Shown piece after piece: positions 2,484 through 36,080 of a stretch of DNA of 64,000 nt. The stretch's first letter is position 1, and the number at the start of each line of letters is the position of its first letter. The notes below the pieces were generated by a model that saw only the letters and a program-made list of their open reading frames with translations, was not told where the DNA came from and made no database searches. The position numbers and the translations under genes were made by a program. The DNA is taken from the NCBI GenBank assembly GCA_947600335.1, contig CANQGB010000001.1:2443-66442 (forward strand). Reading direction: 5' to 3'. The stretch is from an uncultured Bacilli bacterium (GTDB taxonomy: Bacteria > Bacillota_I > Bacilli_A > RF39 > UBA660).

Positions 2484-5372
2484 ATGAGCAAAAAAGGATT
2501 CACAATAGTAGAATTGTTAGCTACAATAGTAATATTAGCTATTATATCAACGCTTGCTTTTGCAGCCTATAGAAATATTCAAGCAAGGATGAAAGAAACA
2601 GCTTTAAAAAATAAAATTGCCTACATAGAAAATGCTTCTTCAAATTATGCTAATGATACTGGCAACTTGGTTACAATTGTTCAAGTTTTAGTAGATGAAG
2701 GATATATTGAACCAGATGATAATAATGGGGTAGTAAAAAATCCTGTAACAGATGAGGAAATGAATTGTTTAGTTGTCAATATTAGAGAAGATCAAAACAA
2801 TTTATATGGGGAATTAACTGATGTCAAAGAATGTGATATTACTAATCTAGAAATAACTAATCGTAATTTAAATGTCGATGTTTTTGAAAAAGATACTAAT
2901 CGCAAACTAGCAGGTAACGAATGGACAAGTAAAGATGTCTATTTACAAGTAAGTTTTAAAGATAGTAGTATAAATAAGAATAATGTCAAAAAGATAACTT
3001 GGATAAGTAACAGTGGTCGAGAAGAGGTTGCAATCAATAATGATTTTGATAGTCACAATCGGAAAGATGTTACAGCTTCATTAATTATCAATGCCACATA
3101 TAAAGTAGAAATATTAATGAATGATGATGTTAAATATCAAGCCCAAACCAATGTCAAAATAGATAAACAACGACCAGAAATATATGAAGCTGAGAACTAT
3201 ATCGAAAATGAGAATAATTATACCAACAGTGATAAATTAGTCAGAATAACAGCAACCGATTTTAATGGTTCAGGCATCGCGGGATATTACATAGGAACCA
3301 GTAATGATTGTAGAACCGCCCGCTATGAATCAAGCAATAACTCTACATATGAAAAAAGTCTAGATAATGGAACCTATTATGCCTGTGCTAAAGATAAAGT
3401 TGGTAATTTATCCGAAGATATAAGTACCAAACAAATCGTAATTAATCGAGTAGATAAAGTAGTTCCAACCTGTGAATTAATGGCTACTGGAGATATGGGA
3501 AAGAATAATTGGTATGTAAGTAATATAGAAATCGCATTTAAGAGTACAGTAGATAATGAAAGTGGAATCAAAAGTGCTACGATAGATAAGCCTTTAATAA
3601 CCGAAAACACTAATGACATAGTAGTAACGGGAACAGTAGTTGATCAAGCGGGAAATAGCAGTACCTGTAATATAACAGTCAAAAAAGATAGTGATAGACC
3701 AAATTGTGAATTAGAGAAATTAGGAACATTAGGTAAAAATGACTATTATACAAGTGATGTTGATATAAAATTTAAAAGTGCCACAGATAACCTAAGTGGT
3801 GTAGCTAGTCAAAGTTTAAATCGTAATAAAATTACAGAAAACACCAACGGAGTAGATATCACTGGAACTATTGAAGACAATGCGGGTAACCAAAATACCT
3901 GTACAATCAATGTTAAAAAAGATAGTGATAAACCAAGTTGTGAATTAGAGAAATTAGGCACATTAGGCAAAAATGATTACTATACCAGTAATGTTGATAT
4001 AAGATTTAAAAGTGCAACTGATGGAACCAGTGGTGTAGCTAGTCAAAATTTAAATCGCAATAGAGTCACAGAAAACACTAATGGAGTAGATATCACCGGA
4101 ACAATCGAAGACAGAGCCGGAAATCAAAATACCTGTACAATCAATGTTAAAAAAGATAGCGAAAATCCAAGTTGTGAATTAGAAAAAGTGGGAAAATTAG
4201 GCAAAAATGATTACTATACTAGTGATGTTGAAATAAGATTTAAAACTGCCACTGATAACATGAGCGGTGTGGCTAGTCAAATTTTAAGCCAAGCTAGAGT
4301 CACGGAAAATACTAATGGTAAAAATATCACTGGAACTATTGAAGACAATGCCGGTAATAAAAGTACTTGTACAATATATGTCAAAAAAGATAGTGATAGA
4401 CCAAATTGTGAACTAGAAAAAGTAGGAACTTTAGGTAAAAATGATTACTATACCAGTAATGTTGATATAAGATTTAAAACTACAAATGATGGAACTAGTG
4501 GTATAGCTAGTCAAAATTTAAATCGCAATAGTGTTACCGAAAATACCAATGGCGTAACCATCACGGGAACTATTGAAGACAATGCCGGCAACCAAAATAC
4601 TTGTACAACAACTGTTAAAAAAGATACTGATAATCCAAGTTGTGAGCTAGAAAAAGTAGGAAAATTAGGCAACAATGATTATTTTACTAGTGATGTCGAA
4701 ATAAAATTTAAAACTACAAATGATGGTACTAGTGGTATATTAAACCAATATTTAAGTCAAAATAAAATAACCAGCGATACTAATGGTGTAACCATCACGG
4801 GAACCATTGAAGATAAAGCTGGTAATCAAAATACATGTACAACAACTGTTAAAAAAGATGCAACTCCTCCAACAGTCACTTTTAGTGGTGAATCAAATGA
4901 ATGGACCAAAAGTGACCGAGTTATAACACTAAACTGCGATGATCATGGCATTAGTGGATGCGTAGAAAACAGTAGACAAATGACATTTTCATCCAATACT
5001 AAAACAGTAACCCGATGGTTTGAAATAGCAGATAGAGCTGGCAATAAAGTTAGTATTACTCGTGAATTTAACGTGTATGTAGATAAATGCACTTCAACTG
5101 AACCTTCTTATGGTGGTTGGAGTGGCTGTAGTGCTGATTGTGGCGGTGGAACACAAACTCGAACTGTAACACATAATAGTACTTTTGGTAGCGGTTTTGC
5201 TTGTTCCTATGGAACAGACTCTCAAAGTTGCAATACCCAATCTTGTTCAAGCGGTGGCGGTGGCGGCGATAGTGGCCCAGGAAATTGCCGAAACCACTGT
5301 TCAGGAGTTTTATACTCTTGCTATGGAAGCTGTGTATGGGGACATGAAACTTGTGAATGCTGTGATTGTTAA
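2484..5372 (+). CDS. Large pilin-like surface protein: type IV prepilin N-terminus, Ig-like repeats, TSP1-like Cys-rich C-terminus
   Basis: N-terminus MSKKGFTIVELLATIVILAIIS is a class III signal (G/F cleavage site, Glu at +5). Six tandem 80-aa repeats (CELEK..GKNDYYTS..TENTNG..TGTIED.AGN..TC). C-terminus has W-S-G-C-S-A-D-C-G-G-G-T-Q-T-R plus many Cys. SD-like GGGAGAGGAG upstream. Confidence 0.75.
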   Translation: MSKKGFTIVELLATIVILAIISTLAFAAYRNIQARMKETALKNKIAYIENASSNYANDTGNLVTIVQVLVDEGYIEPDDNNGVVKNPVTDEEMNCLVVNIREDQNNLYGELTDVKECDITNLEITNRNLNVDVFEKDTNRKLAGNEWTSKDVYLQVSFKDSSINKNNVKKITWISNSGREEVAINNDFDSHNRKDVTASLIINATYKVEILMNDDVKYQAQTNVKIDKQRPEIYEAENYIENENNYTNSDKLVRITATDFNGSGIAGYYIGTSNDCRTARYESSNNSTYEKSLDNGTYYACAKDKVGNLSEDISTKQIVINRVDKVVPTCELMATGDMGKNNWYVSNIEIAFKSTVDNESGIKSATIDKPLITENTNDIVVTGTVVDQAGNSSTCNITVKKDSDRPNCELEKLGTLGKNDYYTSDVDIKFKSATDNLSGVASQSLNRNKITENTNGVDITGTIEDNAGNQNTCTINVKKDSDKPSCELEKLGTLGKNDYYTSNVDIRFKSATDGTSGVASQNLNRNRVTENTNGVDITGTIEDRAGNQNTCTINVKKDSENPSCELEKVGKLGKNDYYTSDVEIRFKTATDNMSGVASQILSQARVTENTNGKNITGTIEDNAGNKSTCTIYVKKDSDRPNCELEKVGTLGKNDYYTSNVDIRFKTTNDGTSGIASQNLNRNSVTENTNGVTITGTIEDNAGNQNTCTTTVKKDTDNPSCELEKVGKLGNNDYFTSDVEIKFKTTNDGTSGILNQYLSQNKITSDTNGVTITGTIEDKAGNQNTCTTTVKKDATPPTVTFSGESNEWTKSDRVITLNCDDHGISGCVENSRQMTFSSNTKTVTRWFEIADRAGNKVSITREFNVYVDKCTSTEPSYGGWSGCSADCGGGTQTRTVTHNSTFGSGFACSYGTDSQSCNTQSCSSGGGGGDSGPGNCRNHCSGVLYSCYGSCVWGHETCECCDC

Positions 5373-5431: not shown

Positions 5432-5932
5432 ATGAAAAAGAATAAAATAATTGTATTAGTTATATTGTTGATATTAATAATCGGGGGAGATATTTTCTTA
5501 GTCAGTCATTTTTCCTCAAAGCCCAATAATCCAGAAAATCCTAATTCTACCCCCACAACTCCCAATGATAATCCAACAACCAAAAAAGTCATTTGTACCA
5601 AAGCCGATACAATTGTTGAGGATACAATGACTTATCAATTAGATAAAAAATATTCATTTTCTGTTAACCAAGATAATAAATTATTTGACTATTTAGATGA
5701 AACAATTTATACCTTTGAAAACATCGAAGATTTTAACTCTTTTTATCAAGATTTAGAAATAACTATTGCTAATATGAAAAATAAAGCTGCCTCCATAACT
5801 AAAAATGAGGCCGACTTAACTATATATTTTTCATTAGTTGAACGTTGGGGCGACTCGGAATATTATAAAGATGGCTATGTTGATTTCTTAGAAGATAGTT
5901 TTGGTTACTCTTGTGAAATTCAAAACGCTTAA
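5432..5932 (+). CDS. hypothetical secreted or membrane-anchored protein
   Basis: N-terminal hydrophobic signal anchor followed by a Pro/Asn/Thr-rich linker. Strong RBS AAGGGAGGTG. Confidence 0.45.
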   Translation: MKKNKIIVLVILLILIIGGDIFLVSHFSSKPNNPENPNSTPTTPNDNPTTKKVICTKADTIVEDTMTYQLDKKYSFSVNQDNKLFDYLDETIYTFENIEDFNSFYQDLEITIANMKNKAASITKNEADLTIYFSLVERWGDSEYYKDGYVDFLEDSFGYSCEIQNA

Positions 5933-11310: not shown

Positions 11311-12084
11311 GTGAAGAGTATGAAGTTTAATATATCTTATATTTTTATGGTCTTTTTTATTTATAGTGTTCTGGGGTTTATTTCTGAAACTATTTTTACA
11401 AGTATTAAAAACAAAAAATTTGTCAATCGGGGTTTTTTATTTGGACCTTATTGTCCCGTGTATGGTTTTGGTAGTCTTTTTATTATCTATTGTTTATCTC
11501 GTTATGAAAATGACCCCATTGTGGTCTTTATCTTAGGTTCGGTGATTACTTCTTGTTTAGAGTATTTTACGAGTTTTATTTTAGAAAAAATCTTTCATAA
11601 TAAGTGGTGGGATTATTCCGATTATAAATACAATGTTAATGGCCGAATTTGTTTACAAAATACCATTTTATTTGGTCTAGGTAGTTTAGTTATCATTTAT
11701 TTAGGAGACCCTTTAATTTTTAAATTTTTAAATAGATTATCTAATTTTAGTTTAAATTTAAATGCTTTAATTTATGGTTTTATTTTTATTGTCGATACGA
11801 TTTATTCTTTCATTATTGCCTATAACTTAAGAAATAAATTAATTTTCTGTGAAGAATTGAAGAAAGAAAAATTAGCTCATTTACCTGGTATGTTAGAAAA
11901 AATTATGAAAGAACGTTTAAGCAATTTAAAAACTTATCCTAAACGTTTACTAGAAGCTTTCCCTAATTTAAAGAATAACAACTTTAAAGAGTTTGAAATC
12001 ATGAAAGCGATTCGTGAAAAAAATATCTTAGAAAAGAAAAAACAGAAAAAAAATAAAGCAAAGAAGAAAAAAGTTAACAAATAA
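11311..12084 (+). CDS. polytopic membrane protein with a Lys-rich C-terminus (possibly CmpB/PF06541-like)
   Basis: Multiple transmembrane helices and a KKKQKKNKAKKKK tail. The family assignment is tentative. Confidence 0.3.
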   Translation: MKSMKFNISYIFMVFFIYSVLGFISETIFTSIKNKKFVNRGFLFGPYCPVYGFGSLFIIYCLSRYENDPIVVFILGSVITSCLEYFTSFILEKIFHNKWWDYSDYKYNVNGRICLQNTILFGLGSLVIIYLGDPLIFKFLNRLSNFSLNLNALIYGFIFIVDTIYSFIIAYNLRNKLIFCEELKKEKLAHLPGMLEKIMKERLSNLKTYPKRLLEAFPNLKNNNFKEFEIMKAIREKNILEKKKQKKNKAKKKKVNK

Positions 12085-12151
12085 GTTAATTTTTTTTTAA
12101 TTTAAAAGGAAATTTCAAATTTTCATTGTAAATATATAGTAGGAGGTGAAA

Positions 12152-14224
12152 ATGAGAAAAGAATTAATTATAATTCAACAAGACCTAAAAGATTGTGGTG
12201 TATGCTGTTTACAATCGATTATAAAATATTATCATGGCTATGTACCATTAGAAAAAATCCGTATCGATACGGCTACGTCTATGGAGGGGACAAATGCATA
12301 TCAATTAATCAAAGCCGCTAAAAGTTATGGATTTAATTCGCTTGGTAAAAGATTACCTAGTATCAACGATATTAATGATGAATTAATATATCCTTGCATT
12401 GCTCATATTGCTACTAAAAAATATAGCCATTTTGTTGTTATTTATAAGAGTACTAAAGATAGCTTAATTTTAATGGACCCAGCTAAAGGTAAAGTCGTTC
12501 AAAAAAAAGTTGATTTTATGAAAACGTGGACTAATGTCATTATCGAACTTTATCCTCAAAATAAAATTTTAAATATTAAAACGCAAAATTTCATTCCCTT
12601 ATTTTCTAAAAAACTTATTTCGCAAAATAAAAACATATTTTTCAAAATTTTCCTATATAAAATATTCCTTATTTTCTTTAGTTTAGTCTTAAGTTTTCAT
12701 TTTAAAATTAATCTTAGTCTTTTTAATAATCAAGCTATCAAAACTTTTATTATGATATCAACATATTTTATTTTAGGTTATTTTTTCAAAGTAGTTTTTA
12801 ATTACTTCGAGAATTATCAAAAAAATCTTTTGGAAAAAAAGATAGATACTGAAGTTTACCATGATTTTTTATCGCACTTATTTTTACTTCCGGATAGTTT
12901 TATTAAAAATCGGACCTCGGGGGAGATTATGACTAGAGTAGAGGAGTTAAGTAGTATTAAAGAATTTTATTCGAATATTTTCTTATCTTTAGTCCTCGAA
13001 AGTATTTTATTAATCATTTGTAGTATTGTTCTTTTTCATATTAATTTAACTTTATTTTTAACTTTAGGTTTATTTCTAGTTATTTATATTTTGATTGGAA
13101 CAATCTACAGCCGCCGGTTATTTAAAAAAATTATCCAAAATATAGAAGCTACTTCTATATTCAATGCTAAGGTTTTAGAAAATTTAGATGTTTATACGAC
13201 CTTAAAAAATTTAGGTGTCTTAAAGGCAGCTAATCAAGAATTAAATTATATAACTAACTGTTATCTTAAAAATAACTATCAATTAAACGAGTACTTTTTA
13301 AACTTTAATACTTTCTGTGATTTTTTAGAACAGTTGCTTAACTATTTTATTATTACTTTTGGTTTCATTTTAATTTACCAAAATAAATTAAGTATTGTCG
13401 ATTTATATACGTTTCTAATTTTAATTTTTTACCCCATTAATTATATAAAAAATCTTATTATCATAATCCCTAAATATACTTATATTAAAGCAATTATTCA
13501 TAAAATCAACGATTATTTTGATATCCCAATCGCACAAGAAGAAAATAGTACTGAGTTTTCTTATGGGGATATTCGAATAACAAATTTAACTTATTGCCTC
13601 AATTATCAAGAATATATATTTCAAAATTTAAACTTAGTTATTTTAAAAAACAGTCATGTTATGTTAAAAGGTTCATCAGGATGTGGCAAATCAACCCTTT
13701 GTAAATTAATAACTAGGTCCATCACAGATGAGTATATGCCCATAACTATCGATGGCCATTTAATCAACACTTTGACCCAAAAATCTCTAGAACAAAACAT
13801 TACTTACGTCGGTCAAAGAGAAAATTTAATTCAAGATACGATTAAGAATAATATTTTATTCTATCGCCAAATATCCGAAGAAAAGTTAAACCAAATTATT
13901 TCACTATGTGCTTTAGATGAACTAATTAAGAAAAAGCCTTTAGGTTTAGAAACTTTTCTCTTTAAAGACAGTTCTAATTTATCGGGTGGTGAAAAACAAA
14001 GAATAATCTTAGCCCGAGCCTTATTAAATGATTTTAAAATTTTAATCTTAGATGAGGCTTTAAGCGAACTAAATGAAGATTTAGAAATTGGAATAATAAA
14101 AAATTTAAGAAAAAATTATCCTGATAAAACTATCATTTATGTTACGCATAAAAATCATGATGAGTATTTTGACGATGTCATTGATTTAAGCAAAAAAAAG
14201 GAGGTTATTAATGATTTTATCTAA
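12152..14224 (+). CDS. bacteriocin-processing ABC transporter with N-terminal C39 peptidase domain (ATP-binding/permease)
   Basis: N-terminal LKDCGVCCLQSII (C39 catalytic Cys). Transmembrane domain. Walker A GSSGCGKST, ABC signature LSGGEKQRI, Walker B ILILDEA. RBS AGGAGGTGA. Confidence 0.85.
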   Translation: MRKELIIIQQDLKDCGVCCLQSIIKYYHGYVPLEKIRIDTATSMEGTNAYQLIKAAKSYGFNSLGKRLPSINDINDELIYPCIAHIATKKYSHFVVIYKSTKDSLILMDPAKGKVVQKKVDFMKTWTNVIIELYPQNKILNIKTQNFIPLFSKKLISQNKNIFFKIFLYKIFLIFFSLVLSFHFKINLSLFNNQAIKTFIMISTYFILGYFFKVVFNYFENYQKNLLEKKIDTEVYHDFLSHLFLLPDSFIKNRTSGEIMTRVEELSSIKEFYSNIFLSLVLESILLIICSIVLFHINLTLFLTLGLFLVIYILIGTIYSRRLFKKIIQNIEATSIFNAKVLENLDVYTTLKNLGVLKAANQELNYITNCYLKNNYQLNEYFLNFNTFCDFLEQLLNYFIITFGFILIYQNKLSIVDLYTFLILIFYPINYIKNLIIIIPKYTYIKAIIHKINDYFDIPIAQEENSTEFSYGDIRITNLTYCLNYQEYIFQNLNLVILKNSHVMLKGSSGCGKSTLCKLITRSITDEYMPITIDGHLINTLTQKSLEQNITYVGQRENLIQDTIKNNILFYRQISEEKLNQIISLCALDELIKKKPLGLETFLFKDSSNLSGGEKQRIILARALLNDFKILILDEALSELNEDLEIGIIKNLRKNYPDKTIIYVTHKNHDEYFDDVIDLSKKKEVINDFI

Positions 14225-14339
14225 TGAAGAACTACAAACAATATCTGGTGGAAGTTTAAAAGAAGCTTTTATAGTAGGCGTTGGTTCTGTTATCAGTTTT
14301 TTTGTAGGCGTTTTCGAAAGTTTTTTTGCTAGATGCTAG
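14211..14339 (+). CDS. double-glycine leader bacteriocin precursor peptide A (42 aa)
   Basis: MILSNEELQTISGG leader (LSxxELxxIxGG consensus) followed by a hydrophobic Gly-rich 28-aa core. GGAGG RBS 7 nt upstream. Overlaps the last codons of the transporter gene. Confidence 0.7.
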   Translation: MILSNEELQTISGGSLKEAFIVGVGSVISFFVGVFESFFARC

Positions 14340-14359
14340 TTAGAAAGGAGTAAATTAAA

Positions 14360-14512
14360 ATGTATTTAACAAATCAAGAATTAACTAAAATTAATGGTGG
14401 AGCTTTGTCTTCAACGATTAATTCCATGACTAAAATTTTTTCCTTTTTTTATGATTTAGGTAAGTCTGTAGGTAATACCATTAGAAATTTATTTGGAAAA
14501 AATTATTGTTAA
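14360..14512 (+). CDS. double-glycine leader bacteriocin precursor peptide B (50 aa)
   Basis: MYLTNQELTKINGG leader followed by a 36-aa amphipathic core ending in C. RBS AAAGGAG upstream. Confidence 0.7.
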   Translation: MYLTNQELTKINGGALSSTINSMTKIFSFFYDLGKSVGNTIRNLFGKNYC

Positions 14513-14560
14513 AATATCTGAGGTATTATATAATTAATACATACTAAGGAGGGATATATA

Positions 14561-15298
14561 ATGAAGCAAAAATCTCAAGGTTTTATTGCAATTTCATTAA
14601 TATATTCCTTTTTTTTAGTGTTTTTAATGACTATCTCAGCGATTATTGTTGATTATGCTCATAATCGCATCTTAGTTAATGAAGTATTAAAAGACACCCA
14701 AAATTATTTAAATAGCTTAGCCGAAAATGATCAAACTAAACTTCCTCGTAAAGATTATACTTTAAGAGAAAACGTTAATTATGCAGGTTTAACTTGGCAA
14801 GTAATTGGCACTAATGGCAATGATGTCACTTTAGTTTTAAATCGGGCATTAAATAATGCAGAAATAACTGCCGCTATTAATCATATGCATTATGAACTAA
14901 CTCACAATAATGAATACGTTAAAATGTGTAGTAATATTTATACAACTTATTATTGTTTTTATACGAGTAATACCTCTTATAAAGCTTATAATTATGATAA
15001 TAGTTTAATAAAAGCTTTAGTCAATGCTTGGTTTGATACTAATAGTTCTTTACAAGAAGCTTTAACTCACTATTCTTTAACTGCCATGACTGTTGCAGTT
15101 AACGGTACCTCATCTAGTGACTATGTTCGTATTATGAATCGCGATGAAGCTAGTATTATCGGTGATAATAATACCTGGACCTATACTTACTCTCGCTTAG
15201 CAAGTGGAATTAGTTATACTAAAAATGCTAGTAATGCTGATGTTAGTACCGTAGCTGAACAAACCGTAAGACCTGTAATTACAGTCAAAAAGAATTAA
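14561..15298 (+). CDS. hypothetical membrane-anchored protein (possible bacteriocin immunity or accessory protein)
   Basis: N-terminal transmembrane helix. Position immediately after the bacteriocin peptides. RBS AAGGAGGG. Confidence 0.3.
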   Translation: MKQKSQGFIAISLIYSFFLVFLMTISAIIVDYAHNRILVNEVLKDTQNYLNSLAENDQTKLPRKDYTLRENVNYAGLTWQVIGTNGNDVTLVLNRALNNAEITAAINHMHYELTHNNEYVKMCSNIYTTYYCFYTSNTSYKAYNYDNSLIKALVNAWFDTNSSLQEALTHYSLTAMTVAVNGTSSSDYVRIMNRDEASIIGDNNTWTYTYSRLASGISYTKNASNADVSTVAEQTVRPVITVKKN

Positions 15299-16095
15299 GT
15301 AAACAAACTTATAATCTTAGCTAAAAGATAACTTATGACTAAAAAAATCAAGTAATATATAATTTTTTTAAAACTAAAATCTAAACTAGGCATAATTAAA
15401 ATGGCACTCATCAAAACCATACCCCAAAGCAAACTCATTGTCAGTTTGCGATTTTTTTTTAAACAAAATAGTGAGAACTTTCCGCCTAAAAAAATGCCTA
15501 ATAAATCTCCCAGAAAATAAAAACTCAAAGGAATTATAAAATATAAATATTGCCAAGATAAATTAGCTAAATAGGATTTATACAAAAAGTAGGGGCCTAA
15601 AATCATCATTATCATTGACCCCGAAATACCCGGTAAAATTGTAAAAAAGCCGTCAATCATTCCACAACTCCAAAACCAAATTAAAAAAATAAAAGTAATC
15701 TTGGGATAATTGCTAATTACCAAACTATCATTATAACTAATTAAAGATAAAGAACTCATTAAAATAGCTCCCACCAAAAACCATTTTATTGAAAAGTTAC
15801 GAGGTTCTTTTTTTATCATATCTTTTAAACTAAAAAGGACTAAACCCCCAAAGATAATTAATATTTCTTGCGGGAAAAAATAAAACAACAATTCTGCAAT
15901 CCGGGCAAAAGTAATAGTTCCTAAGATAACTCCTATTAAAAGCATTAAAATAATAAACTTATTTTGTTTTTCCTTTAAATTAGTAATAACCATTGTAAAC
16001 CACTCATATTTGTCAAGCATCACTAAAACCGTTCCGCCACTAATACCTGGGATTAAACTAACAACGCCAATTAAAAATCCTGTCAAAAAGTTCAT
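15295..16095 (-). CDS. DUF368 family membrane protein
   Basis: Two internal repeats carrying IPGISGGT and LPGISGSM motifs. Polytopic. Confidence 0.5.
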   Translation of the reverse strand: MNFLTGFLIGVVSLIPGISGGTVLVMLDKYEWFTMVITNLKEKQNKFIILMLLIGVILGTITFARIAELLFYFFPQEILIIFGGLVLFSLKDMIKKEPRNFSIKWFLVGAILMSSLSLISYNDSLVISNYPKITFIFLIWFWSCGMIDGFFTILPGISGSMIMMILGPYFLYKSYLANLSWQYLYFIIPLSFYFLGDLLGIFLGGKFSLFCLKKNRKLTMSLLWGMVLMSAILIMPSLDFSFKKIIYYLIFLVISYLLAKIISLFT

Positions 16096-16765: not shown

Positions 16766-18649
16766 ATGAAAAAAATTTTAAAAATAATTACCTTATTAGT
16801 TCTTATCTTGCCTTTAACTACCCAAGCCTTAACTTACGATAATGTTTATTATAATATTAGTGATTATTATATCGATGCTGATATTTTAGAAAATGGCGAT
16901 TTGTTAGTCAATGAATTAATTGTTTTAGATGGGACTTTTAATGGTTATATTCGAGATATTGCTTATCGTAATTCCAAATTAACTAGCAATAATTATGAAA
17001 ACAATGTTTTATACAATGCAAGTGGAATTGAATTAATTGATATTTCCGCCAAAAAAATTAATGGCGAGGTAAGTTTTGCCACTATAAATGAATCAGGTTA
17101 TACAACATTAACTCCTAATTACAGTGCTAATTTAGGTTATACCATCACATCTTTATCTAATGAAGAAGAATATAAAATGTACTTTGCCACTAACGGAAAA
17201 GCAGCTTTTAAAATCACCTATTTATTAAAAGATGTCGCGGTTATTCATCAAGATGTCGCGGAACTTTATTGGACATTTATTGGTGATGGTTTTGACGATG
17301 CCATTAACAACTTACACATAAGAGTTAATTTACCCCAAAAAGATAGTAGCTCTGATTTTCGTATCTGGGCCCATGGTGATTTATCCGGTGAAATAAATAA
17401 ATATGATGACAGTTATTGTCTAGCTACCATTAACCAAAATAAAGCTCTTAATCCCATCGACATTCGTCTAACATTTGCTAAGAATTTGTTAGATGAAACC
17501 AGCGTTCAAAAACAAAATGTGGAAACAGCCTTACCCGAAATTTTAAAAGTTGAAGAAAAGAGAGCTGATAAAGCTAATCGTCAAAGAAAGAAAATGCAAA
17601 TTATTAGAAATATTATTTTTATATTAAATCTTCTTTGGTATCTATCCTTATTTATCACAGCTATCTATGTTTATTTCAAATATGATAAAGAATATAAAAG
17701 TATTTTTAAAAACAAATATAATCGAGAATTTATCGACGACTACAATGTTGAAGTAATAGATTATCTTATGAATAAAAACATTACGCCTAATGCCTTAAGT
17801 GCTTCAATTATGAACTTAGTTTACAAAAAAAATATTCGTTTAGAAGAAATAAGTTCTGATAAAAAACATAAAAATTATCAATTTACTTTACTTAATCAAG
17901 ATAATCTCAACGATACCGAAAAATATTTAGTAGATTTCTTATTTAATCGTGTGGGCAAGGAAAATACCTTTACTACGGAAGACTTAAAAAAGTATGCCTC
18001 TAGTCCTAAAACTTATGATAAATTTCACTCTAACTATACCACTTGGAAAAATAAAGTCGTTAGCGATGGCAAAAAGCAACAATTCTTTGAGAAAAAATCT
18101 AAGCCTATTTCTTTGGGTACTTTATTTTTAGTAACCGCCTTTTTATTAATCTTAATCGATGCCATCTTTGGTTTTCAAATTATTTTTTATGGTAGGTTAT
18201 TCTTGGCGATTATCTTCTTTGTTTACACAATAACATTTAGCAAAAGAACCAAAAAAGGTAACGAAGATTATGTCCGTTGGAAAGCTTTCAAAAACTTCTT
18301 ACAAGATTTTGGCAACTTTAAAATCAAAGAACTTCCTGAAATTATCCTGTGGGAAAGATATTTAGTTTATGCCACCATTTTTGGTCTAGCCAAACAAGTA
18401 TCAAAAAATATGAATGTTCTAATTAGTGAAATTCCAGAAGGCACTTATGTCGACTACTATCCATCATTTGTGGACTTTTACATCTTTGATAGCATTTCTA
18501 ACTCCATCAATAGTGCAATTGCTTCGAATAATACAGCCATAACTAACGCCCAAATATCATCATCTAGTAGCAGTGGTGGTGGTTTTGGCGGCGGCTTCTC
18601 TAGTGGTGGCGGCTTCGGTGGAGGCGGCGGCGGTGGTCGTGGTTTCTAG
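16766..18649 (+). CDS. DUF2207 domain membrane protein with a Gly-rich C-terminal tail
   Basis: Canonical LemA+DUF2207 gene pair. Signal peptide, transmembrane helices, C-terminal SSSSGGGFGGGFSSGGGFGGGGGGGRGF. Confidence 0.6.
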   Translation: MKKILKIITLLVLILPLTTQALTYDNVYYNISDYYIDADILENGDLLVNELIVLDGTFNGYIRDIAYRNSKLTSNNYENNVLYNASGIELIDISAKKINGEVSFATINESGYTTLTPNYSANLGYTITSLSNEEEYKMYFATNGKAAFKITYLLKDVAVIHQDVAELYWTFIGDGFDDAINNLHIRVNLPQKDSSSDFRIWAHGDLSGEINKYDDSYCLATINQNKALNPIDIRLTFAKNLLDETSVQKQNVETALPEILKVEEKRADKANRQRKKMQIIRNIIFILNLLWYLSLFITAIYVYFKYDKEYKSIFKNKYNREFIDDYNVEVIDYLMNKNITPNALSASIMNLVYKKNIRLEEISSDKKHKNYQFTLLNQDNLNDTEKYLVDFLFNRVGKENTFTTEDLKKYASSPKTYDKFHSNYTTWKNKVVSDGKKQQFFEKKSKPISLGTLFLVTAFLLILIDAIFGFQIIFYGRLFLAIIFFVYTITFSKRTKKGNEDYVRWKAFKNFLQDFGNFKIKELPEIILWERYLVYATIFGLAKQVSKNMNVLISEIPEGTYVDYYPSFVDFYIFDSISNSINSAIASNNTAITNAQISSSSSSGGGFGGGFSSGGGFGGGGGGGRGF

Positions 18650-23711: not shown

Positions 23712-24566
23712 ATGAAAGTTGATATTATATGTCCATTATATAATGCTGAAAAGTATCTTAAAAAATTGCACGAATCATTTTTGAATCAAAAAAAGGTGAA
23801 TTTACATAAAATTAAATATATATTGACTGAAAGCAATGATTTTACATTAGACATATTAAAAAAATTAAAAAGCAATAAATGTGAATTTGTCTTAATAAAA
23901 AAAGAAGACTTTTCACACAGTTTAGTAAGAGAAAATGCTGCTTTTGAAAGCAAAGCGGATATAATTGTTTTTGTAACGCAAGATATTGAAATAAAAAACG
24001 ATAATTGGTTAGAAAATCTTGTAAAACCAATTGAGAAAGACAAAGTAGCTGCGACATATAGTAGACAACTAACAAAATATAATAATATTGAAAAATATAC
24101 TAGAGAAGCAAATTATCCAGAAAAGTCTTTAATAAAATCTAAAATAGACATTGATAAACTAGGATTAAAAACTTTCTTTTCATCCGATGCTTCTGCTGCA
24201 ATAAAAAGAGATATTTTTGTAGAACTTAATGGATACGATCATAAAGATTTGCCTATTAGTGAAGATATGTATTTTACCTATAAGCTTATTATGAGCGGCC
24301 ATAAAATAAAGTATTGTGCTGATTCAGTAATATATCATTCACATAATTTTACCTTAAGTGAAATTTATAATCGTTATAAATTAACAGGAGAATTTTTTAA
24401 AGAAAATAGTTACTTAGATAAATATGGAACTGATAGCTCAGGATTTACTCTAGCTAAATATGTTTTTAAAAGAATTATTCAAGAACATAGATTTACTCTT
24501 TTAATTAGATTCCCTTTTGATATGGGTGCTAGGTTAATTGGCATGAAAGTTGGGAAGTGGTTTTAA
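23712..24566 (+). CDS. glycosyltransferase family 2
   Basis: N-terminal DIICPLYNAEKYL, an internal DxD-type acidic region (SEDM), GT-A fold features. Confidence 0.65.
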   Translation: MKVDIICPLYNAEKYLKKLHESFLNQKKVNLHKIKYILTESNDFTLDILKKLKSNKCEFVLIKKEDFSHSLVRENAAFESKADIIVFVTQDIEIKNDNWLENLVKPIEKDKVAATYSRQLTKYNNIEKYTREANYPEKSLIKSKIDIDKLGLKTFFSSDASAAIKRDIFVELNGYDHKDLPISEDMYFTYKLIMSGHKIKYCADSVIYHSHNFTLSEIYNRYKLTGEFFKENSYLDKYGTDSSGFTLAKYVFKRIIQEHRFTLLIRFPFDMGARLIGMKVGKWF

Positions 24567-25799
24567 ATGATCGATTCAAATAAAAATGAACTAAAAAATA
24601 TTATCATTATTAATGATTTTGACTATGTACAAGGTGGAGCCAGTAAAGTTGCGATAGATACAGCAAATTCACTGGCTGAAAAAAATTATAATGTAATATT
24701 TTTTTGTGGAATATCAAGTTCCTTATCTCAACTAAATACAAAGGTAAAAAAAATATGTACCAATCAATACGAAGCTTTAAAAGATAAAAATCGAGTTCGA
24801 GGATTAATAAATGGGCTTTATAATTTTAAATCAGAAAAAATATTTAATAATTTATTAAAAGAATATGACAATAAAAATACTATTATCCATATCCATGGTT
24901 GGTCAAAATGTTTGTCTAGTAGTGTTATAAATGCTGGCTTTAAAAAAAAGTTTAAAATTGTATTGACTATGCATGATTACTTTACGGCATGTCCTAATGG
25001 TGGTTTTTTTAATTATCCAAAAAATGAAATTTGTAAATTGAAAGCATTATCTAGTAAGTGTATGATGTGTAATTGTGATTCAAGGAATTATTTATATAAA
25101 ATCTATAGGATAATAAGACAATTAATACAAAAAAATATTGTAAAATTAAACAAAAAAATAGAAAACGTTATATCAATATCTGATTTTAGTGAAAAAATAC
25201 TTAAGCCTTATCTTCCAAAAGATAAAGTAAATATTTATAGAGTATATAATCCAATTGAAATTATGAATGTTAAAAATGATATTAGTAAAAATCAATATTA
25301 CTTATTTGTTGGACGATTATCTCCTGAAAAAGGTGTGGAAACTTTTTGCAATGCAATTAGCAAAAGCAAGAAAAAAGGGATAGTTGTTGGAGATGGACCT
25401 GAAATGAAAAGATTGTCTTTAAAATATCCTGAAATAGATTTTGTTGGATGGAAAAATAAGCATGAGGTCGCTGATTATATGATTAAAGCAAAAGCATTAA
25501 TTTTCCCAAGTTTATGGTATGAAACAGTTGGCCTTACTTTACTTGAAGCCAATATGGTAGGCGTTCCTGGCATAGTAAGGAAAAATATTGCCACATCTGA
25601 ATTTGTACAAGATAATGTAAATGGCTTTTTATTTTCCAATGATGAAGATTTAATTAAAATATTGAAAAAATACGACACTATGTCTAAAGATACACTGTTA
25701 AATATGTCTAGATTAGCTAAATCAAATGCTAAAAATTATACTTATCAAAAATATATATATGATTTAGAAAAATGTTATAAAAATATAATTAATTCATAA
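24567..25799 (+). CDS. glycosyltransferase family 4 (GT-B)
   Basis: C-terminal EANMVGVPGIV...EFVQDNVNGFLF matches the GT4 E-x7-E motif region. Confidence 0.7.
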   Translation: MIDSNKNELKNIIIINDFDYVQGGASKVAIDTANSLAEKNYNVIFFCGISSSLSQLNTKVKKICTNQYEALKDKNRVRGLINGLYNFKSEKIFNNLLKEYDNKNTIIHIHGWSKCLSSSVINAGFKKKFKIVLTMHDYFTACPNGGFFNYPKNEICKLKALSSKCMMCNCDSRNYLYKIYRIIRQLIQKNIVKLNKKIENVISISDFSEKILKPYLPKDKVNIYRVYNPIEIMNVKNDISKNQYYLFVGRLSPEKGVETFCNAISKSKKKGIVVGDGPEMKRLSLKYPEIDFVGWKNKHEVADYMIKAKALIFPSLWYETVGLTLLEANMVGVPGIVRKNIATSEFVQDNVNGFLFSNDEDLIKILKKYDTMSKDTLLNMSRLAKSNAKNYTYQKYIYDLEKCYKNIINS

Positions 25800-25842
25800 T
25801 GTTGAAAATAAATTAAATTTTTATTTAAAGGAGGTAAAATTT

Positions 25843-27225
25843 ATGCTTTATCCATTTGCCTATATTTTATTTATCATTATTTTATATTTAATTTTAACTA
25901 GTAAAGATTTTGATTCATTATTTAAAAGATTTCTTTTATTAGAATGTTTCTTTAGTTGCTCAAGAATGAATATAGGATATTTAACTCATGTATTTAATTC
26001 TGAAATAGAGTACAATGATTTAATATTGGGCATAGTTTTTTGTCTATCAATAATACAAATATTTAGAAAGAGAAAGGTAAATAAAAAGGTTTTTAAATAT
26101 TCAATTATTTTAATAAGTGTTGTGTTAATTAGTATGTTAAATTGTTATTTGAATCCAGCGGCTATAGAAGTTGTAGGTTTTAATAGTAGTTTAGATAAAT
26201 ACTTTCGTGGTGACTTGTCACAATTAACTATGGTTCATTTTTCCATACAAAGCATAATGATGTTTGCAAGACTTATTATATTTATAACAATAATTAATGC
26301 TACAAAAGTATCTTTTTCAAAAGAAGAAATTTTAAATTTTTGTCAAAAGTTGTTGAAATATTTAAAAATTTTAATATTATATGGTTTATTTGAATTTATA
26401 ATAAAATTTATTTTTCATATTGATATCAGTACATATATATATGGTATTTTTGGACATGGTGTTTCTAGTCCCAATATAGTTAGTCGATTGTCGGGGTTAT
26501 CTAGAGAGCCAAGCTATTACTCATTAGCATTATTTATTTATCTATTTCTATCATTTTTATACAATCAATACTATAACAAAAATTTTAAAGTTAATGCTTG
26601 GATGATTTTAGCATTGTTTTTAGGATTTGTTTCAACCTCTTTTTCATTTGTTATTTGCTTTGTTTCTTTGACTTTATTATATATTAATAATTATCGTGAT
26701 TTTATGTTAACAGTTAAAAAAAAGAAACAACTGTTTAATATAATTTTTGGAATTTTATTAATTTCAGGGATTTTTATAATAGTAAATCAAAAATTCCTTG
26801 ATTTTGCTTTAGCTAGTAACTATACATCAATAAATAGGTTAGGTAATTCAATTATCCAAATAAAAAATGGCTTTAAAGGACTCTATATTTTAGGAAAAGA
26901 TTACTCTTCAGAAACTGTTAGGCTGATAGGGGCAATAATTGCTTTTAAAGCTGGTCTTCACCGCCCACTATTTGGTCTTGGCCTCGGCACCGTATATTGT
27001 GTAAATGGTGTTGTGTCAATAATATCTAATATTGGAATTTTAGGATTTATATGTTGGCTATTGCTTTTATTCAAAGGTTATACAAATAATATTAATTTTG
27101 TAGGAATTATTATAATATTACTAACTGTGCTTTTCTGTAACGATTTATATACGCTTTACGATGTGAGTTATGTAATTTTATTACCATTATATTCATTATA
27201 TTATGAAAATAGGAGGTTTAATTAA
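25843..27225 (+). CDS. O-antigen polymerase/ligase-like (Wzy family) membrane protein
   Basis: Ten or more transmembrane helices with a large periplasmic-type loop, 460 aa, located inside a glycan cluster. Confidence 0.55.
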   Translation: MLYPFAYILFIIILYLILTSKDFDSLFKRFLLLECFFSCSRMNIGYLTHVFNSEIEYNDLILGIVFCLSIIQIFRKRKVNKKVFKYSIILISVVLISMLNCYLNPAAIEVVGFNSSLDKYFRGDLSQLTMVHFSIQSIMMFARLIIFITIINATKVSFSKEEILNFCQKLLKYLKILILYGLFEFIIKFIFHIDISTYIYGIFGHGVSSPNIVSRLSGLSREPSYYSLALFIYLFLSFLYNQYYNKNFKVNAWMILALFLGFVSTSFSFVICFVSLTLLYINNYRDFMLTVKKKKQLFNIIFGILLISGIFIIVNQKFLDFALASNYTSINRLGNSIIQIKNGFKGLYILGKDYSSETVRLIGAIIAFKAGLHRPLFGLGLGTVYCVNGVVSIISNIGILGFICWLLLLFKGYTNNINFVGIIIILLTVLFCNDLYTLYDVSYVILLPLYSLYYENRRFN

Positions 27226-28356
27226 ATGAAAAAATGTATTGTATTTATTTCCATGAATACTAAAAAAGAGGGGGCAGAGAAATCTTTAATTTCTTTACAA
27301 AAATATTTAATTAATAGCAAGAATATTAAAACAATTACAATAATTCCAGAAAATGGTAAAATTGAAGAATTATTGAAAGAAAATAATATAGAATATATGA
27401 TCTGTAATTTTAGAAACTGCATAAATCTTAATAAAGGAAAACAATATATTAAAGGAAATCTAAAAAAAATATATAATCAAATTCAGGCAAAAAAATTAGC
27501 CAAAAAACTAAAAAAATATAATATTCAGATTGTTCATACTAATACATTAACCACTGATTTTGGCTATTATTTAGCAAAAGAATTAAATGCAAAACATATT
27601 TGGCATATCCGAGAATTAGCCAAAAAACAATTTAATTTTGATTTTGAATTAGGTAATGATTATATAATAAAATGCGTAAATCAGTCGTCAAAAATAATTT
27701 GTAACTCAGAATCAGTAAAAGAATATTATTCTAATTATTTTGATAAATCCAAAATTATTTGTGTTTATAATGGCGTAAGCACTGCAGAAAGCGGAAAAGA
27801 AGATTGGAATAATCCAAAATTTAAAATGGTTTTAGCAGGCCGCTTAAGTAGTGAAAAATGTCAAATGCTTGCAATAAAAGCATGTAAGATCTTAAAAGAA
27901 TCTAATTATAATAATTTTATATTAGATTTATACGGTGATGGAATTGATAAAGATATTTTAGAAAAAAATATAATTGATTTAAACTTAGAAAAATATATTA
28001 AATTAAAAGGCTTTTCCGATAATGTACCTTTTAAAAATTATCATTTAGGTTTAATGTGTAGTAGTAATGAAGCTTTTGGAAGAGTAACAGTAGAGTATAT
28101 GATGAATTCGCTTCCAGTTATAGGTGCTAATTCATTTGGAACAAAGGAGATTATTAAGGATAACATATCTGGCTATCTATTTAATGTTGATGATGCTAAA
28201 GATTTAGCAGATAAAATTATGATATTTTACAATAATCGAAAATTATGTCAAAAAATGGGAAAAGAAGGTAGAAAAATAGCATTGAGAAATTTTTCAGAAA
28301 ATAGCTATTGTGAAAATATTTATAAAATATATCAAAAAATTTTTTTGGAGGAATAG
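27226..28356 (+). CDS. glycosyltransferase family 4
   Basis: GT-B architecture. C-terminal EAFGRVTVEYMMNSLPVIGANSFGTKEII..GYLF. Confidence 0.7.
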   Translation: MKKCIVFISMNTKKEGAEKSLISLQKYLINSKNIKTITIIPENGKIEELLKENNIEYMICNFRNCINLNKGKQYIKGNLKKIYNQIQAKKLAKKLKKYNIQIVHTNTLTTDFGYYLAKELNAKHIWHIRELAKKQFNFDFELGNDYIIKCVNQSSKIICNSESVKEYYSNYFDKSKIICVYNGVSTAESGKEDWNNPKFKMVLAGRLSSEKCQMLAIKACKILKESNYNNFILDLYGDGIDKDILEKNIIDLNLEKYIKLKGFSDNVPFKNYHLGLMCSSNEAFGRVTVEYMMNSLPVIGANSFGTKEIIKDNISGYLFNVDDAKDLADKIMIFYNNRKLCQKMGKEGRKIALRNFSENSYCENIYKIYQKIFLEE

Positions 28357-28362
28357 ATAGAA

Positions 28363-29292
28363 ATGAATAAAATTAGTATAGTTATCACAACATTTAATGA
28401 TGAAAAAAATATTATCAATGTATTAAAAAATATATATGTTGACCAAAGTTATAAAGTTGATGAAATAGTAATTTGCGATGGTGGCTCAAAAGATAAGACA
28501 GTAAATGTTATTAAAAATTATTCAAAAGAAAATAAAATTAATATTAAATTAATATCTGATGGTAAGCGAAGAAATATTTCAGAAGGCCTAAATCAAGCTA
28601 TTAAAATGGCTACTAATTATTGGATTTTAATTATTGGAACAGGTAATAGTTATCAAAATGATTTTATCGAAAAAATAATAAATGCTCAGTCAAAACATAA
28701 AGTAGATCTAGTTTATGGGCCAATTTTAGGTATTGACAAAACTTTTTTTGGAAAAATTTTTAACCAATATTTTTTAAATGGTAATAAATCAATTGATATG
28801 GGGGCAAGTAATCATGGGGTGCTAATTAATAAAAAAATATTTGAAAAATATGGATATTTTTATGAAAAATTTATATATGCAGGAGAAGATACAGAATTTT
28901 ATATAAGGTTAAAAAATAATTTTGTAAAAGCTTATTATGAAAAAGAGGCTATTCTTTATTGGGATACACCTCAAACTGTAAATGAATATTTAAAAAAAAT
29001 GAGGGTTAATTCAATAGCTGATTGGCAAATATTTAAGCGTCGGAAAGTATGGATAAAAATCATCACCCCAATCATTCTTTTAATATTATACTCAATATTA
29101 GTTTTATTAAATCCGTGTTTTACATTATTAATCTTACCATTAATTGCATGTATTGCTGTAAAGAAGAGAACATTTAATATTTTAGCTATACTATTAGGAA
29201 TTATTACTAAGTATGTTATGGTGTATTATTATTTAAAAAATATAAAATATTCTAATTCAAAATATCATATTCAAAAAAATTATGAATTATAA
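28363..29292 (+). CDS. glycosyltransferase family 2 with C-terminal transmembrane anchor
   Basis: N-terminal ISIVITTFNDE..ICDGGSKD (GT-A DxD region) plus C-terminal transmembrane helices. Confidence 0.65.
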   Translation: MNKISIVITTFNDEKNIINVLKNIYVDQSYKVDEIVICDGGSKDKTVNVIKNYSKENKINIKLISDGKRRNISEGLNQAIKMATNYWILIIGTGNSYQNDFIEKIINAQSKHKVDLVYGPILGIDKTFFGKIFNQYFLNGNKSIDMGASNHGVLINKKIFEKYGYFYEKFIYAGEDTEFYIRLKNNFVKAYYEKEAILYWDTPQTVNEYLKKMRVNSIADWQIFKRRKVWIKIITPIILLILYSILVLLNPCFTLLILPLIACIAVKKRTFNILAILLGIITKYVMVYYYLKNIKYSNSKYHIQKNYEL

Positions 29293-29311
29293 ATAAGAGG
29301 AGTGGTAGTTT

Positions 29312-30526
29312 ATGAAATATTTGATATTAGGTGCTGGACCAGCAGGATTAACAGTCGCAAATAAATTAAAAGAATTAGGCGAAGAAGATTTTTTAGTTTT
29401 AGAAAAGGAAAATGAAGCTGGGGGATTATGTCGCTCCGTAATGGTAGATGGATCACCATTTGATATTGGTGGCGGCCATTTTTTAGATGTTAGGCGTGCA
29501 AATGTTAATAAATTTTTATTTAATTTTATGCCTGAAAATGAATGGAATTTATATGAACGAAATAGTCAAATTAAAGTAAATAATAATATAATAAATCATC
29601 CAATAGAAGCAAATATTTGGCAAATGAAAATTGAAGATCAAGTTGAATATCTAAAATCTATTGCAATAGCTGGATGTAATGTTGGGCAGCCGATGCCTAC
29701 AAAATTTACAGATTGGATATATTGGAAATTGGGAGCAAAAATAGCTGATGATTATATGATACCTTATAATCAAAAAATGTTTAGCAAAGAACTTGATGAA
29801 CTTGGTACATACTGGTTAGAAAAATTACCAAATGTTAGTTTTGAAGAAACACTATTGTCTTGTTTAGAAAAAAAAGCTTATGGTAAGCAACCAGGACACG
29901 CACAATTCTATTATCCTAAAAAATATGGCTATGGAGAATTATGGCTAAGAATGGCAAAAAATATAAACAATAAAATATTGTATGAAAAAGATGTCAATGA
30001 AATAAATTTTGATACATTAACTGTTATAACAAGCGATGGTGAAGAATATCAAGCCGAAAATATTATTACGACAATACCATGGATGGAATTTTCAAAAATC
30101 TATGGAATGCCTAAAGAAATAAAAGAATCAATAAGCAAATTAAAATATAGTTCTATTCAAACAGAATACTTTAATAATAGTTTAGATACTGATGCACATT
30201 GGATATATTATCCTGATCCTCAATTGCCTTATCATCGAATTTTAGTAAGGAGCAACTTTTGCACTAATAGTCGAGGATATTGGACAGAAACAAATTCTGA
30301 GCGAATAAATACAGAAATTCCAAATTCAAATTTTAAATATCTAAACAAATATGCTTATCCTTTAAATACAATAGACAAACCTGAAATAATGAAACGGTTA
30401 TTAGAATGGTGTAAAAATAAAAATGTTTATGGCTTAGGAAGATGGGGAGAGCACCAACATTATAATTCTGATGTTACAGTAGATTTAGCCCTTCAATTAA
30501 CTGATGATTTAATCAATAAAAATTAA
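29312..30526 (+). CDS. FAD/NAD(P)-binding oxidoreductase, UDP-galactopyranose mutase-like
   Basis: N-terminal ILGAGPAGL..LEKENEAGGLCRS dinucleotide-binding motif. Size and context suit a Glf-like enzyme. Confidence 0.45.
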   Translation: MKYLILGAGPAGLTVANKLKELGEEDFLVLEKENEAGGLCRSVMVDGSPFDIGGGHFLDVRRANVNKFLFNFMPENEWNLYERNSQIKVNNNIINHPIEANIWQMKIEDQVEYLKSIAIAGCNVGQPMPTKFTDWIYWKLGAKIADDYMIPYNQKMFSKELDELGTYWLEKLPNVSFEETLLSCLEKKAYGKQPGHAQFYYPKKYGYGELWLRMAKNINNKILYEKDVNEINFDTLTVITSDGEEYQAENIITTIPWMEFSKIYGMPKEIKESISKLKYSSIQTEYFNNSLDTDAHWIYYPDPQLPYHRILVRSNFCTNSRGYWTETNSERINTEIPNSNFKYLNKYAYPLNTIDKPEIMKRLLEWCKNKNVYGLGRWGEHQHYNSDVTVDLALQLTDDLINKN

Positions 30527-30573
30527 ATAAAATTATTTTTAAACAATCAAAAAAGGAAGGAATTAAAAACATC

Positions 30574-31629: not shown

Positions 31630-31705
31630 ATTTAAGTTTCATTTTAGCACTTTAAATATATTATTAATTTTTGATGAAAAATATTATTTATTTGGAGGTT
31701 ATAAA

Positions 31706-32599: not shown

Positions 32600-32629
32600 T
32601 TAAAAAAATAAAATATAATAAATGTAGAT

Positions 32630-34090: not shown

Positions 34091-34096
34091 TTTTAT

Positions 34097-35182: not shown

Positions 35183-35479
35183 TATTTTAGAAATTATATC
35201 ATAAATTACAGTATTGAAAAATTGCAATTCTTATGTTAATTATTATATACAATATTAATCGTGAAATAAAAAGTTAAATTCTAGTTTTTAAAGAAAGAAA
35301 AAAATGAACAAGAAAGTTCCAAAAAAGGGACTTTTTTTGCTAGATGTAGAAAAAGAAAAAATAAGATATAATATATTTATCCAGTAAAAAATTTTATTGC
35401 ATACAAAAGGACAACAGAAAGCTGGATTTAAAAAAATATAAAAATAAATTTCTGTTGAGAATAAGTGCAAAAAATTATT

Positions 35480-35990: not shown

Positions 35991-36022
35991 ATGATATAAG
36001 CTACTAAAAAGGATGTTTGTAG

Positions 36023-36051
36023 TTGACAAAGTCTGGGGGGGGGGTTATAAT
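36023..36051 (+). promoter_or_regulatory. sigma-A promoter whose 17-nt spacer contains a G10 homopolymer (candidate phase-variable promoter)
   Basis: TTGACA at 36023-36028, spacer aagtctGGGGGGGGGGt, TATAAT at 36046-36051. The ATG of the downstream gene lies 29 nt further on. Confidence 0.6.
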
Positions 36052-36080
36052 TACTTTAATCTTTTAAAGGATGATTAAGT

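Follow-up and report, generated by a model that had tools for sequence, protein, structure and literature searches.

The subject of this analysis was a locus in a 64,000-nt stretch of contig CANQGB010000001.1 from an uncultured Bacilli bacterium; the whole stretch is referred to as the window. At the locus, a gene for an ATP-binding cassette (ABC) transporter with a C39 peptidase domain is followed by two short genes, pepA and pepB, and these three genes are called the cassette. The G+C content of the chromosome segment holding the locus was 25–30%. Four co-oriented genes could be recognized, namely the three cassette genes and a gene for a 245-amino-acid (aa) protein, and a strong Shine-Dalgarno sequence was present before each of them. 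The coordinates of all features are collected in Table 1.

Table 1. Features of the locus, followed by other genes of the window that are discussed in the text
Feature	Coordinates (nt)	Strand	Evidence or remark
Shine-Dalgarno sequence of the transporter gene, AGGAGG	12141–12146	+	
PCAT-type ABC transporter, 690 aa	12152–14224	+	Pfam matches and PCAT1 alignment; ATG at 12152, TAA at 14222–14224
C39 domain of the transporter, residues ~6–137	~12167–12562	+	Followed by the ABC transmembrane domain and the ATPase domain
Shine-Dalgarno sequence of pepA, AAGGAGG	14198–14204	+	Within the transporter gene
pepA precursor, 42 aa	14211–14339	+	Double-glycine leader, ribosome-binding site, orthologues at the same position
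pepA leader	14211–14252	+	
pepA predicted core, 28 aa	14253–14336	+	
Shine-Dalgarno sequence of pepB, AAGGAG	14345–14350	+	
pepB precursor, 50 aa	14360–14512	+	Double-glycine leader, ribosome-binding site, invariant columns in 18 loci
pepB leader	14360–14401	+	
pepB predicted core, 36 aa	14402–14509	+	
245-aa surface protein	14561–15298	+	AlphaFold2 model, N-terminal module profile, neighbourhood comparison
Prepilin-like N-terminal module of the 245-aa protein, residues 1–53	14561–14719	+	
962-aa modular surface protein	2484–5372	+	
PF06541 (CmpB-like) multi-pass gene	11311–12084		
DUF368/VCA0040-like gene	15295–16095	-	Abuts the cassette region
DUF2207 membrane protein	16766–18649	+	
Polysaccharide biosynthesis cluster	23712–37196	+	

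The C39 transporter and the two precursor genes

The transporter was collinear over its full length with PCAT1 (4ry2, 3.2e-77) and ComA (1e-74). Pfam analysis revealed matches to Peptidase_C39 (2.4e-33, 115 bits), ABC_membrane and ABC_tran, and the protein contained the N-terminal C39 domain with its motifs, the ABC transmembrane domain and the ATPase domain that mark a peptidase-containing ABC transporter (PCAT). The DCG, HFVV and DP motifs of PCAT1, which we take to hold the catalytic Cys, His and Asp of the C39 peptidase, were conserved in the transporter, and its Walker and signature motifs were intact as well. The score against the bacteriocin_ABC model TIGR01193 was 338 bits, under the cut-off of 524 bits. 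The alignments supported its assignment as a putative, catalytically intact PCAT-type C39 ABC exporter. No accessory gene of the LcnD/ComB type (HlyD-like, ~450 aa) could be found in the window, in agreement with the first-pass annotation of this DNA.

The precursor encoded by pepA consisted of the leader MILSNEELQTISGG followed by the predicted core SLKEAFIVGVGSVISFFVGVFESFFARC, and that encoded by pepB of the leader MYLTNQELTKINGG followed by the predicted core ALSSTINSMTKIFSFFYDLGKSVGNTIRNLFGKNYC, with the predicted cut at the junction of leader and core. Both leaders were 14 residues long and carried L-12, E-8, L-7, I-4, G-2 and G-1, the pattern of a double-glycine (GG) leader. The predicted pepA core was hydrophobic (grand average of hydropathy 1.32, net charge 0), ended in a Cys residue and contained three consecutive small-xxx-small motifs, GSVIS, SFFVG and GVFES. 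The predicted pepB core was cationic and amphipathic (net charge +3, maximal helical moment 0.64) and held the sequence GKSVG. Class IIb bacteriocins depend on both peptides, at roughly equimolar amounts, for their antimicrobial activity, and have a dedicated membrane immunity protein whose gene adjoins the peptide genes. GxxxG-type motifs in both cores and two adjacent GG-leader precursor genes are features of this class, and the chemistry of the cores agrees with the published definition of that class (PMC6957408).

The first-pass annotation had already described two open reading frames (ORFs) of fewer than 60 aa behind the C39 exporter, each with a GG leader and its own ribosome-binding site, and had given core lengths of 28 and 36 aa with the hydrophobic peptide first and the cationic amphipathic one second; the genes were present as described, and the computed properties bore out the description of the cores. 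The overlap between the pepA start and the 3' end of the transporter gene that it reported was also found and measured 14 nt. Together with the ribosome-binding site inside the 3' end of the transporter gene, this overlap is compatible with coupled translation of pepA. Its further statement that the peptide genes were missing from the ORF track was correct for a track with a 60-aa cut-off only, since both genes are already predicted by public gene callers. When all ORFs of up to 90 aa on both strands of the window were compared with the GG-leader pattern, pepA and pepB were the sole matches. Chance could be excluded because the only two such ORFs in 64 kb are adjacent and lie directly behind a C39 transporter, and because they are kept in register in 17–18 other loci, pepB having 861 relatives. 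Spurious ORFs were judged unlikely; pepA and pepB are genuine, conserved genes.

Relatives, conserved cysteines and the ~142-aa partner

Syntenic loci in metagenomes and metagenome-assembled genomes (MAGs) were reached via homologues of the 245-aa protein. In these related loci, the transporter gene was followed by GG-leader ORFs of 43–48 aa and 50–53 aa. At least 17 species-level MAGs, all from uncultured gut Bacilli, shared the gene order transporter-pepA-pepB, and pepA orthologues occurred at the same position in 16 other loci. The GG pair, the glycines of the GxxxG motif and a Cys located at the C-terminus or close to it formed invariant columns in the alignments (17–18 loci). A word-indexed search with pepB alone returned two proteins only, and the family was revealed by a profile built from the locus-derived sequences, which matched 861 proteins (90% clusters, E<=1), more than 100 of them better than 3e-18. 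The motif G[RK]xxG was present in 115 of 119 pepB relatives. The few relatives with names were called "hypothetical protein" and came from "Bacilli bacterium" MAGs; every genome match was a MAG of uncultured Bacilli or "Tenericutes" that originated from the gut of rabbit, mouse or roe deer.

The cassette was located at one chromosomal site, flanked on one side by HIGH_NTase, YceD, L32, gerM-like, gerE, spoIIIAH and PF06541 genes and on the other by DUF368, LemA, DUF2207, YgjP, SpoU, rimM and trmD. Mean pairwise identity within the main clade (15 species) was 78% for LemA, 67% for mature pepB, 66% for mature pepA, 60% for both DUF368 and the ABC transporter, 58% for DUF2207, 44% for the 245-aa protein and 39% for a ~142-aa partner protein described below. 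The cores, at 66–67% identity, change about as fast as the backbone proteins, which indicates purifying selection on them. The window and its closest relative, locus L010, represent a divergent sub-lineage. Between these two, the peptides were 60% and 62% identical and the ABC transporter 58.5%, and the similar values indicate that the divergent pair is also maintained.

One widespread species carried disrupted transporters. In its locus L038 (2335–6448), a Tn916-like element with Rep, Xis and integrase interrupts the C39 transporter, and in locus L039 (4391–6448) the transporter is split in two ORFs; the peptide genes are intact in both despite the broken transporter. Such strains indicate that the system is dispensable, which fits an accessory weapon. 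As a separate observation, the pepA orthologue of locus L037 (~5450–5585, …KVLNSNELLNIKGGGLSVGAWCAIGGGIVFLIGVIDGILRPYKCN) showed no in-frame ATG, GTG or TTG after the ribosome-binding site, and its translation may begin at a non-canonical codon; an additional internal Cys was present as well.

A single Cys was present in each peptide, either as the last residue or close to the C-terminus, in the context ...ARC, ...KSC or ...PLKCN in pepA among the loci and ...KNYC in pepB. Among the pepB relatives, the Cys was found within the last 3–5 residues in 117 of 119, and exactly one Cys was present in 115 of 119. Two apparent Cys-less exceptions, P0236 and P0245, were rejected as artefacts, both stopping 17–35 nt from a contig end. 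Both peptides have a cationic C-terminal tail, and in both the Cys is located C-terminal to the GxxxG segment, so that a parallel helix pair would bring the two thiols to the same end. This placement makes a disulfide between the peptides a reasonable inference, and with a single Cys per peptide any disulfide must be intermolecular. The conserved positions thus suggest that an inter-peptide disulfide may join pepA and pepB. To our knowledge, no such inter-peptide Cys staple has been described in class IIb.

In most related loci (about 18), a gene for a single-pass membrane protein of ~142 aa was located between the transporter gene and pepA, its start overlapping the transporter stop (for example L012, 5204–5632). 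The protein had a basic N-terminus and one transmembrane segment, followed by a beta-rich domain outside the membrane, with two conserved Cys in a CxxxC-like arrangement, and by a C-terminal helix rich in Lys. Pfam and PDB searches gave no similarity for it, and it is not of the LcnD/ComB type. Candidate roles for it are those of an accessory to export, an immunity protein and a helper in thiol exchange. The partner has been lost in the window lineage.

The 245-aa protein and other genes of the window

The gene of the 245-aa protein starts 48 nt after pepB and converges on the opposite-strand DUF368/VCA0040-like gene. It may be co-transcribed with the cassette, as no terminator-like site lies between pepB and it. 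The AlphaFold2 model (29-sequence alignment, predicted local distance difference test score 87) predicted one helix at residues 6–53 followed by an alpha/beta globular domain. This ectodomain was C-type-lectin-like with two invariant Cys, and the C-type-lectin-like N-terminal domain of the T. ramosa IgA peptidase can be named as its comparator. The N-terminus consisted of a basic leader and an invariant (K/N)G-FIAISLIYSFFLVFL, with the predicted cut between the Gly and FIAISLIYSFFLVFL. After the Gly, the module, found in the 245-aa protein and in the relatives P0094–P0176, reads F-I-A-I-S-L-I-Y-S-F-F-L-V-F-L ... NR-LL.

The short basic leader up to a Gly, the following Phe and ~20 hydrophobic residues, and the predicted ~48-residue helix ahead of a globular domain, resemble type IV pilin-like proteins and minor pseudopilins of the ComGG type. 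As in a class III (prepilin) signal, the N-terminus has an invariant Gly at -1, an invariant Phe at +1 and an invariant hydrophobic helix; the protein differs from pilin-like proteins in having Ser, not Glu, at +5, and it matched neither N_methyl (PF07963, E<=0.1) nor the ComGG model of Pfam. A profile search with the 245-aa protein against 1.84 billion representatives (E<=0.001) returned 847 hits, of which ~50 were full-length. Hundreds of the hits shared the first 50–60 residues only and carried many different ectodomains, several of which end in G-D-G-T-x-x-N-P-Y-x-I. The N-terminal module had no Pfam match and, in NCBIfam, only a weak match (0.05) to a Mycoplasma MAG0130/MAG3770 membrane-protein model; a literature search on Mbov_0121, MAG0130 and PF06541 returned noise only. 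The module, G-FIAISLIYSFF with the cut after the Gly, is an undescribed anchor module.

A second pilin-like protein was observed elsewhere in the window. The 962-aa protein begins MSKKGFTIVELLATIVIL, matches the N_methyl prepilin model and carries HYR and thrombospondin-type-1-like matches, as in a large modular pilin-like surface protein; its gene stands by itself, with an AI-2E transporter gene on one side and housekeeping genes on the other. The PF06541 multi-pass gene upstream of the transporter was considered as an immunity or cassette gene and rejected. In L039 and L040 it lies beyond the spoIIIAH-gerE-gerM block, on the strand opposite to the cassette, and it was therefore assigned to the backbone.

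On the other side, the DUF368/VCA0040-like gene belongs to an undecaprenyl-phosphate translocase family (PMC9876793). Lactococcin G has been linked to UppP, and enterocin C is reported to have BacA, a protein of undecaprenyl-phosphate recycling, as its target (PMC12765074). The pepA of relatives shows a weak resemblance to the lactococcin G-beta family. The adjacency of DUF368 and the cassette may be a coincidence, because the DUF368 neighbourhood persists in genomes without the cassette. The DUF2207 membrane protein ends in a Ser/Gly/Phe-rich tail (…SSSSSSGGGFGGGFSSGGGFGGGGGGGRGF), and relatives keep such a tail (…GGGFSSGGGFGGGGGGGHGF). The long co-oriented polysaccharide biosynthesis cluster had a G+C content of 21–25%, lower than its flanks, and contained glycosyltransferases of families GT2 and GT4, a flippase, three Acyl_transf_3 genes and an amine-oxidase-like gene. 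A promoter scan found 43 promoter-like sites against 35.7 in shuffled sequence, which is no excess, and a repeat scan of the AT-rich window DNA revealed nothing notable.

Interpretation and relation to known bacteriocins

Taking together the observed gene structure, the leader motifs, the peptidase motif residues, the conservation of the pair and the physico-chemistry of the cores, the locus probably encodes a PCAT-processed two-peptide bacteriocin of the class IIb type, from a new and widespread sequence family. The transporter and both precursors would be produced from one transcript, with pepA translation perhaps coupled to that of the transporter. The C39 domain would recognize the 14-residue leaders and cut after Gly-Gly, and the transporter would export the 28-aa hydrophobic and the 36-aa cationic amphipathic peptide. 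Outside the cell, the peptides are predicted to pair as parallel helices via their GxxxG-type motifs and to kill related target cells by permeabilizing their membranes, and the single C-terminal Cys at the same end of each may allow a disulfide to lock the pair. A bolder proposal, which we regard as rather doubtful, is that a disulfide between the single, universally conserved C-terminal Cys residues staples the two mature peptides into a heterodimeric bacteriocin. The locus would be near-core and passed on vertically across a large clade of uncultured gut Bacilli, with the producer protected by non-classical means, namely the ~142-aa Cys-pair protein in most lineages and another mechanism in the lineage of the window.

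Several observations weigh against the class IIb interpretation. Neither window peptide reached the whole-protein cut-off of any curated bacteriocin model. Between the window and the main clade, mature pepA was only 22% and pepB 37% identical, compared with 54–75% for backbone proteins. The ~142-aa partner was absent from both the window and L010, and its absence together with the divergent peptides means that the activity of the window system could differ or be impaired. No recognizable immunity gene or regulatory module was found at the locus or in the ORFs scanned, which covered the window up to ~43 kb and contained no Abi, histidine-kinase or response-regulator domain. The description of the locus as "complete" in the first-pass annotation could not be upheld, as the partner of most relatives is missing and no immunity gene could be recognized. 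The organisms are uncultured MAGs in which the activity of the peptides is a prediction. Finally, the cassette occupies a fixed site across a deep clade and evolves at a backbone-like rate, which is unusual beside the strain-variable loci of class IIb.

A fixed site and a backbone-like rate would fit a housekeeping or self-directed role, in which the peptides serve fratricide, cannibalism or sporulation-linked lysis, or are small exported membrane subunits, the biochemistry (GG cleavage, export, helix pairing) being unchanged but the target being kin cells or the producer's own membrane and not competitors. Apparent vertical inheritance points the same way, as does the lack of an assignable dedicated immunity gene, and sporulation genes (spoIIIAH, gerE, gerM-like) border the cassette at one end, with DUF368/LemA/DUF2207 at the opposite end. 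CibAB of S. pneumoniae, a core-genome two-peptide fratricide bacteriocin, offers a precedent. We nevertheless consider a self-directed role unlikely. The adjacency of sporulation genes is plain synteny, the block being inverted relative to the cassette in L039 and L040; no competence or sporulation regulator was linked to the cassette, and strains with a disrupted transporter exist. It is highly improbable that the peptides are secreted pheromones of the ComC/BlpC type instead of toxins. GG leaders and a C39 ABC exporter are common to pheromone systems, and weak ComC-model matches were seen over the leader, but two co-conserved peptides were present, not one, their cores are long (28 and 36 aa), membrane-seeking and provided with GxxxG motifs, and no histidine kinase or response regulator was found near the cassette in the window or in ~20 related loci. 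Pheromones usually split into pherotypes, whereas the cores were conserved across species.

The remaining alternative concerns the 245-aa protein, which the first-pass annotation had put forward as the immunity candidate and which could act by LanI-like surface binding or by sequestering via its transmembrane helix. It is the only candidate adjacent to the peptide genes, being co-oriented with pepB, without a terminator-like site between the two, and it is found at the same position in most cassette-bearing genomes; its invariant transmembrane helix carries a small-xxx-small motif (SLIYS). Class IIb immunity proteins are small single-transmembrane-domain, polytopic or Abi-family membrane proteins (PMC6957408), so that a single-helix candidate has counterparts, but none of those known resembles a lectin domain on a pilin-like anchor. 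The protein was independent of the cassette in both directions: it stays beside DUF368/LemA/DUF2207 in genomes without transporter and peptides (L024, L029, L035), and in L040, from a widespread species, the cassette is present without it. Copies without a cassette could also be retained immunity genes. In L036, the peptides are near-identical to those of the main clade, yet the ectodomain is swapped for another (525 aa), while L037 has more divergent peptides and also a different ectodomain. At 44% identity the protein evolves much faster than the peptides, its lectin-like fold suits binding or adhesion, and its N-terminal module belongs to a large surface-protein family, with hundreds of members bearing other ectodomains. 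Dedicated immunity is accordingly quite improbable for the 245-aa protein, which is most likely a backbone surface protein with a pilin-like anchor and a lectin-like domain. With these alternatives considered, a class IIb-type bacteriocin remains the preferred interpretation of the cassette.

The peptides were compared with the curated class II models PF10439, PF04369, PF11632, TIGR03949, NF038034 and NF038035. The best scores of window pepA were 18.9 bits against PF04369 (cut-off 23.1) and 17.5 bits against TIGR03949 (cut-off 21.5), and that of window pepB was 19.5 bits against NF038035 (cut-off 37). These sub-threshold matches, to Lactococcin, Bacteriocin_IIc, TIGR03949 and NF038034/NF038035, were mostly over the leader; the sole model passed was the 15-position leader-domain model TIGR01847, by pepA (17.0 against 15.7). 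The pepA of a main-clade relative came closer, matching positions 1–36 of the 38 of NF038034 (lactococcin G-beta/enterocin 1071B) at 3.3e-8 with 33.6 bits (cut-off 37) and scoring 21.2 bits against TIGR03949 (cut-off 21.5). On these scores, the peptides belong to no curated sequence family, and a distant relationship between the system and the lactococcin G group is possible. A text search of the literature did not find the peptide strings of pepA or pepB.

The locus type itself is ordinary; what stands out is how large the family is, that it is inherited like a core locus, that the cysteines are paired and that an immunity gene is missing. The family revealed here is large and unannotated, and its members are putative two-peptide bacteriocins of uncultured Bacilli from rabbit, mouse and ruminant guts; if active, the peptides could influence how poorly known gut Firmicutes compete with one another. 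The inter-peptide staple, if true, would be a structural variation within class IIb. The comparison of neighbourhoods also corrects a tempting annotation error, in which the next membrane protein is called "immunity", and brings to light an anchor module used by hundreds of surface proteins.

Among known systems, the transporter can be compared with PCAT1 of Clostridium thermocellum (4ry2) and ComA of S. pneumoniae, with which it shares full-length collinearity and the C39 and ATPase motifs; like PCAT1, it has no LcnD/ComB-type gene beside it. It differs from both in being a low-GC, divergent protein below the TIGR01193 cut-off, whose relatives carry the novel ~142-aa single-pass partner. Gallocin A of Streptococcus gallolyticus is likewise a two-peptide GG-leader bacteriocin of a gut bacterium; it is described as atypical, with intramolecular disulfides, and its cysteines are reported to matter for activity (PMC10100652). 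Its disulfide is formed within each peptide, whereas the window peptides have a single Cys each.

The closest comparators are the class IIb systems lactococcin G, enterocin 1071, enterocin C, plantaricin EF/JK and carnobacteriocin XY. The window locus shares with them two adjacent GG-leader genes with a dedicated C39 ABC exporter, and unmodified cores of ~25–40 aa with GxxxG-type motifs, one hydrophobic and one cationic amphipathic; lactococcin G-beta and enterocin 1071B are further approached by the near-threshold model match of the relatives' pepA. In contrast to these systems, the window peptides fall under the curated whole-protein cut-offs and the window locus has no recognizable immunity gene. 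The transporter precedes the peptides here, each peptide carries a strictly conserved single Cys at or near its C-terminus, and the locus is chromosomally fixed in a whole clade of uncultured gut Bacilli instead of varying between strains.

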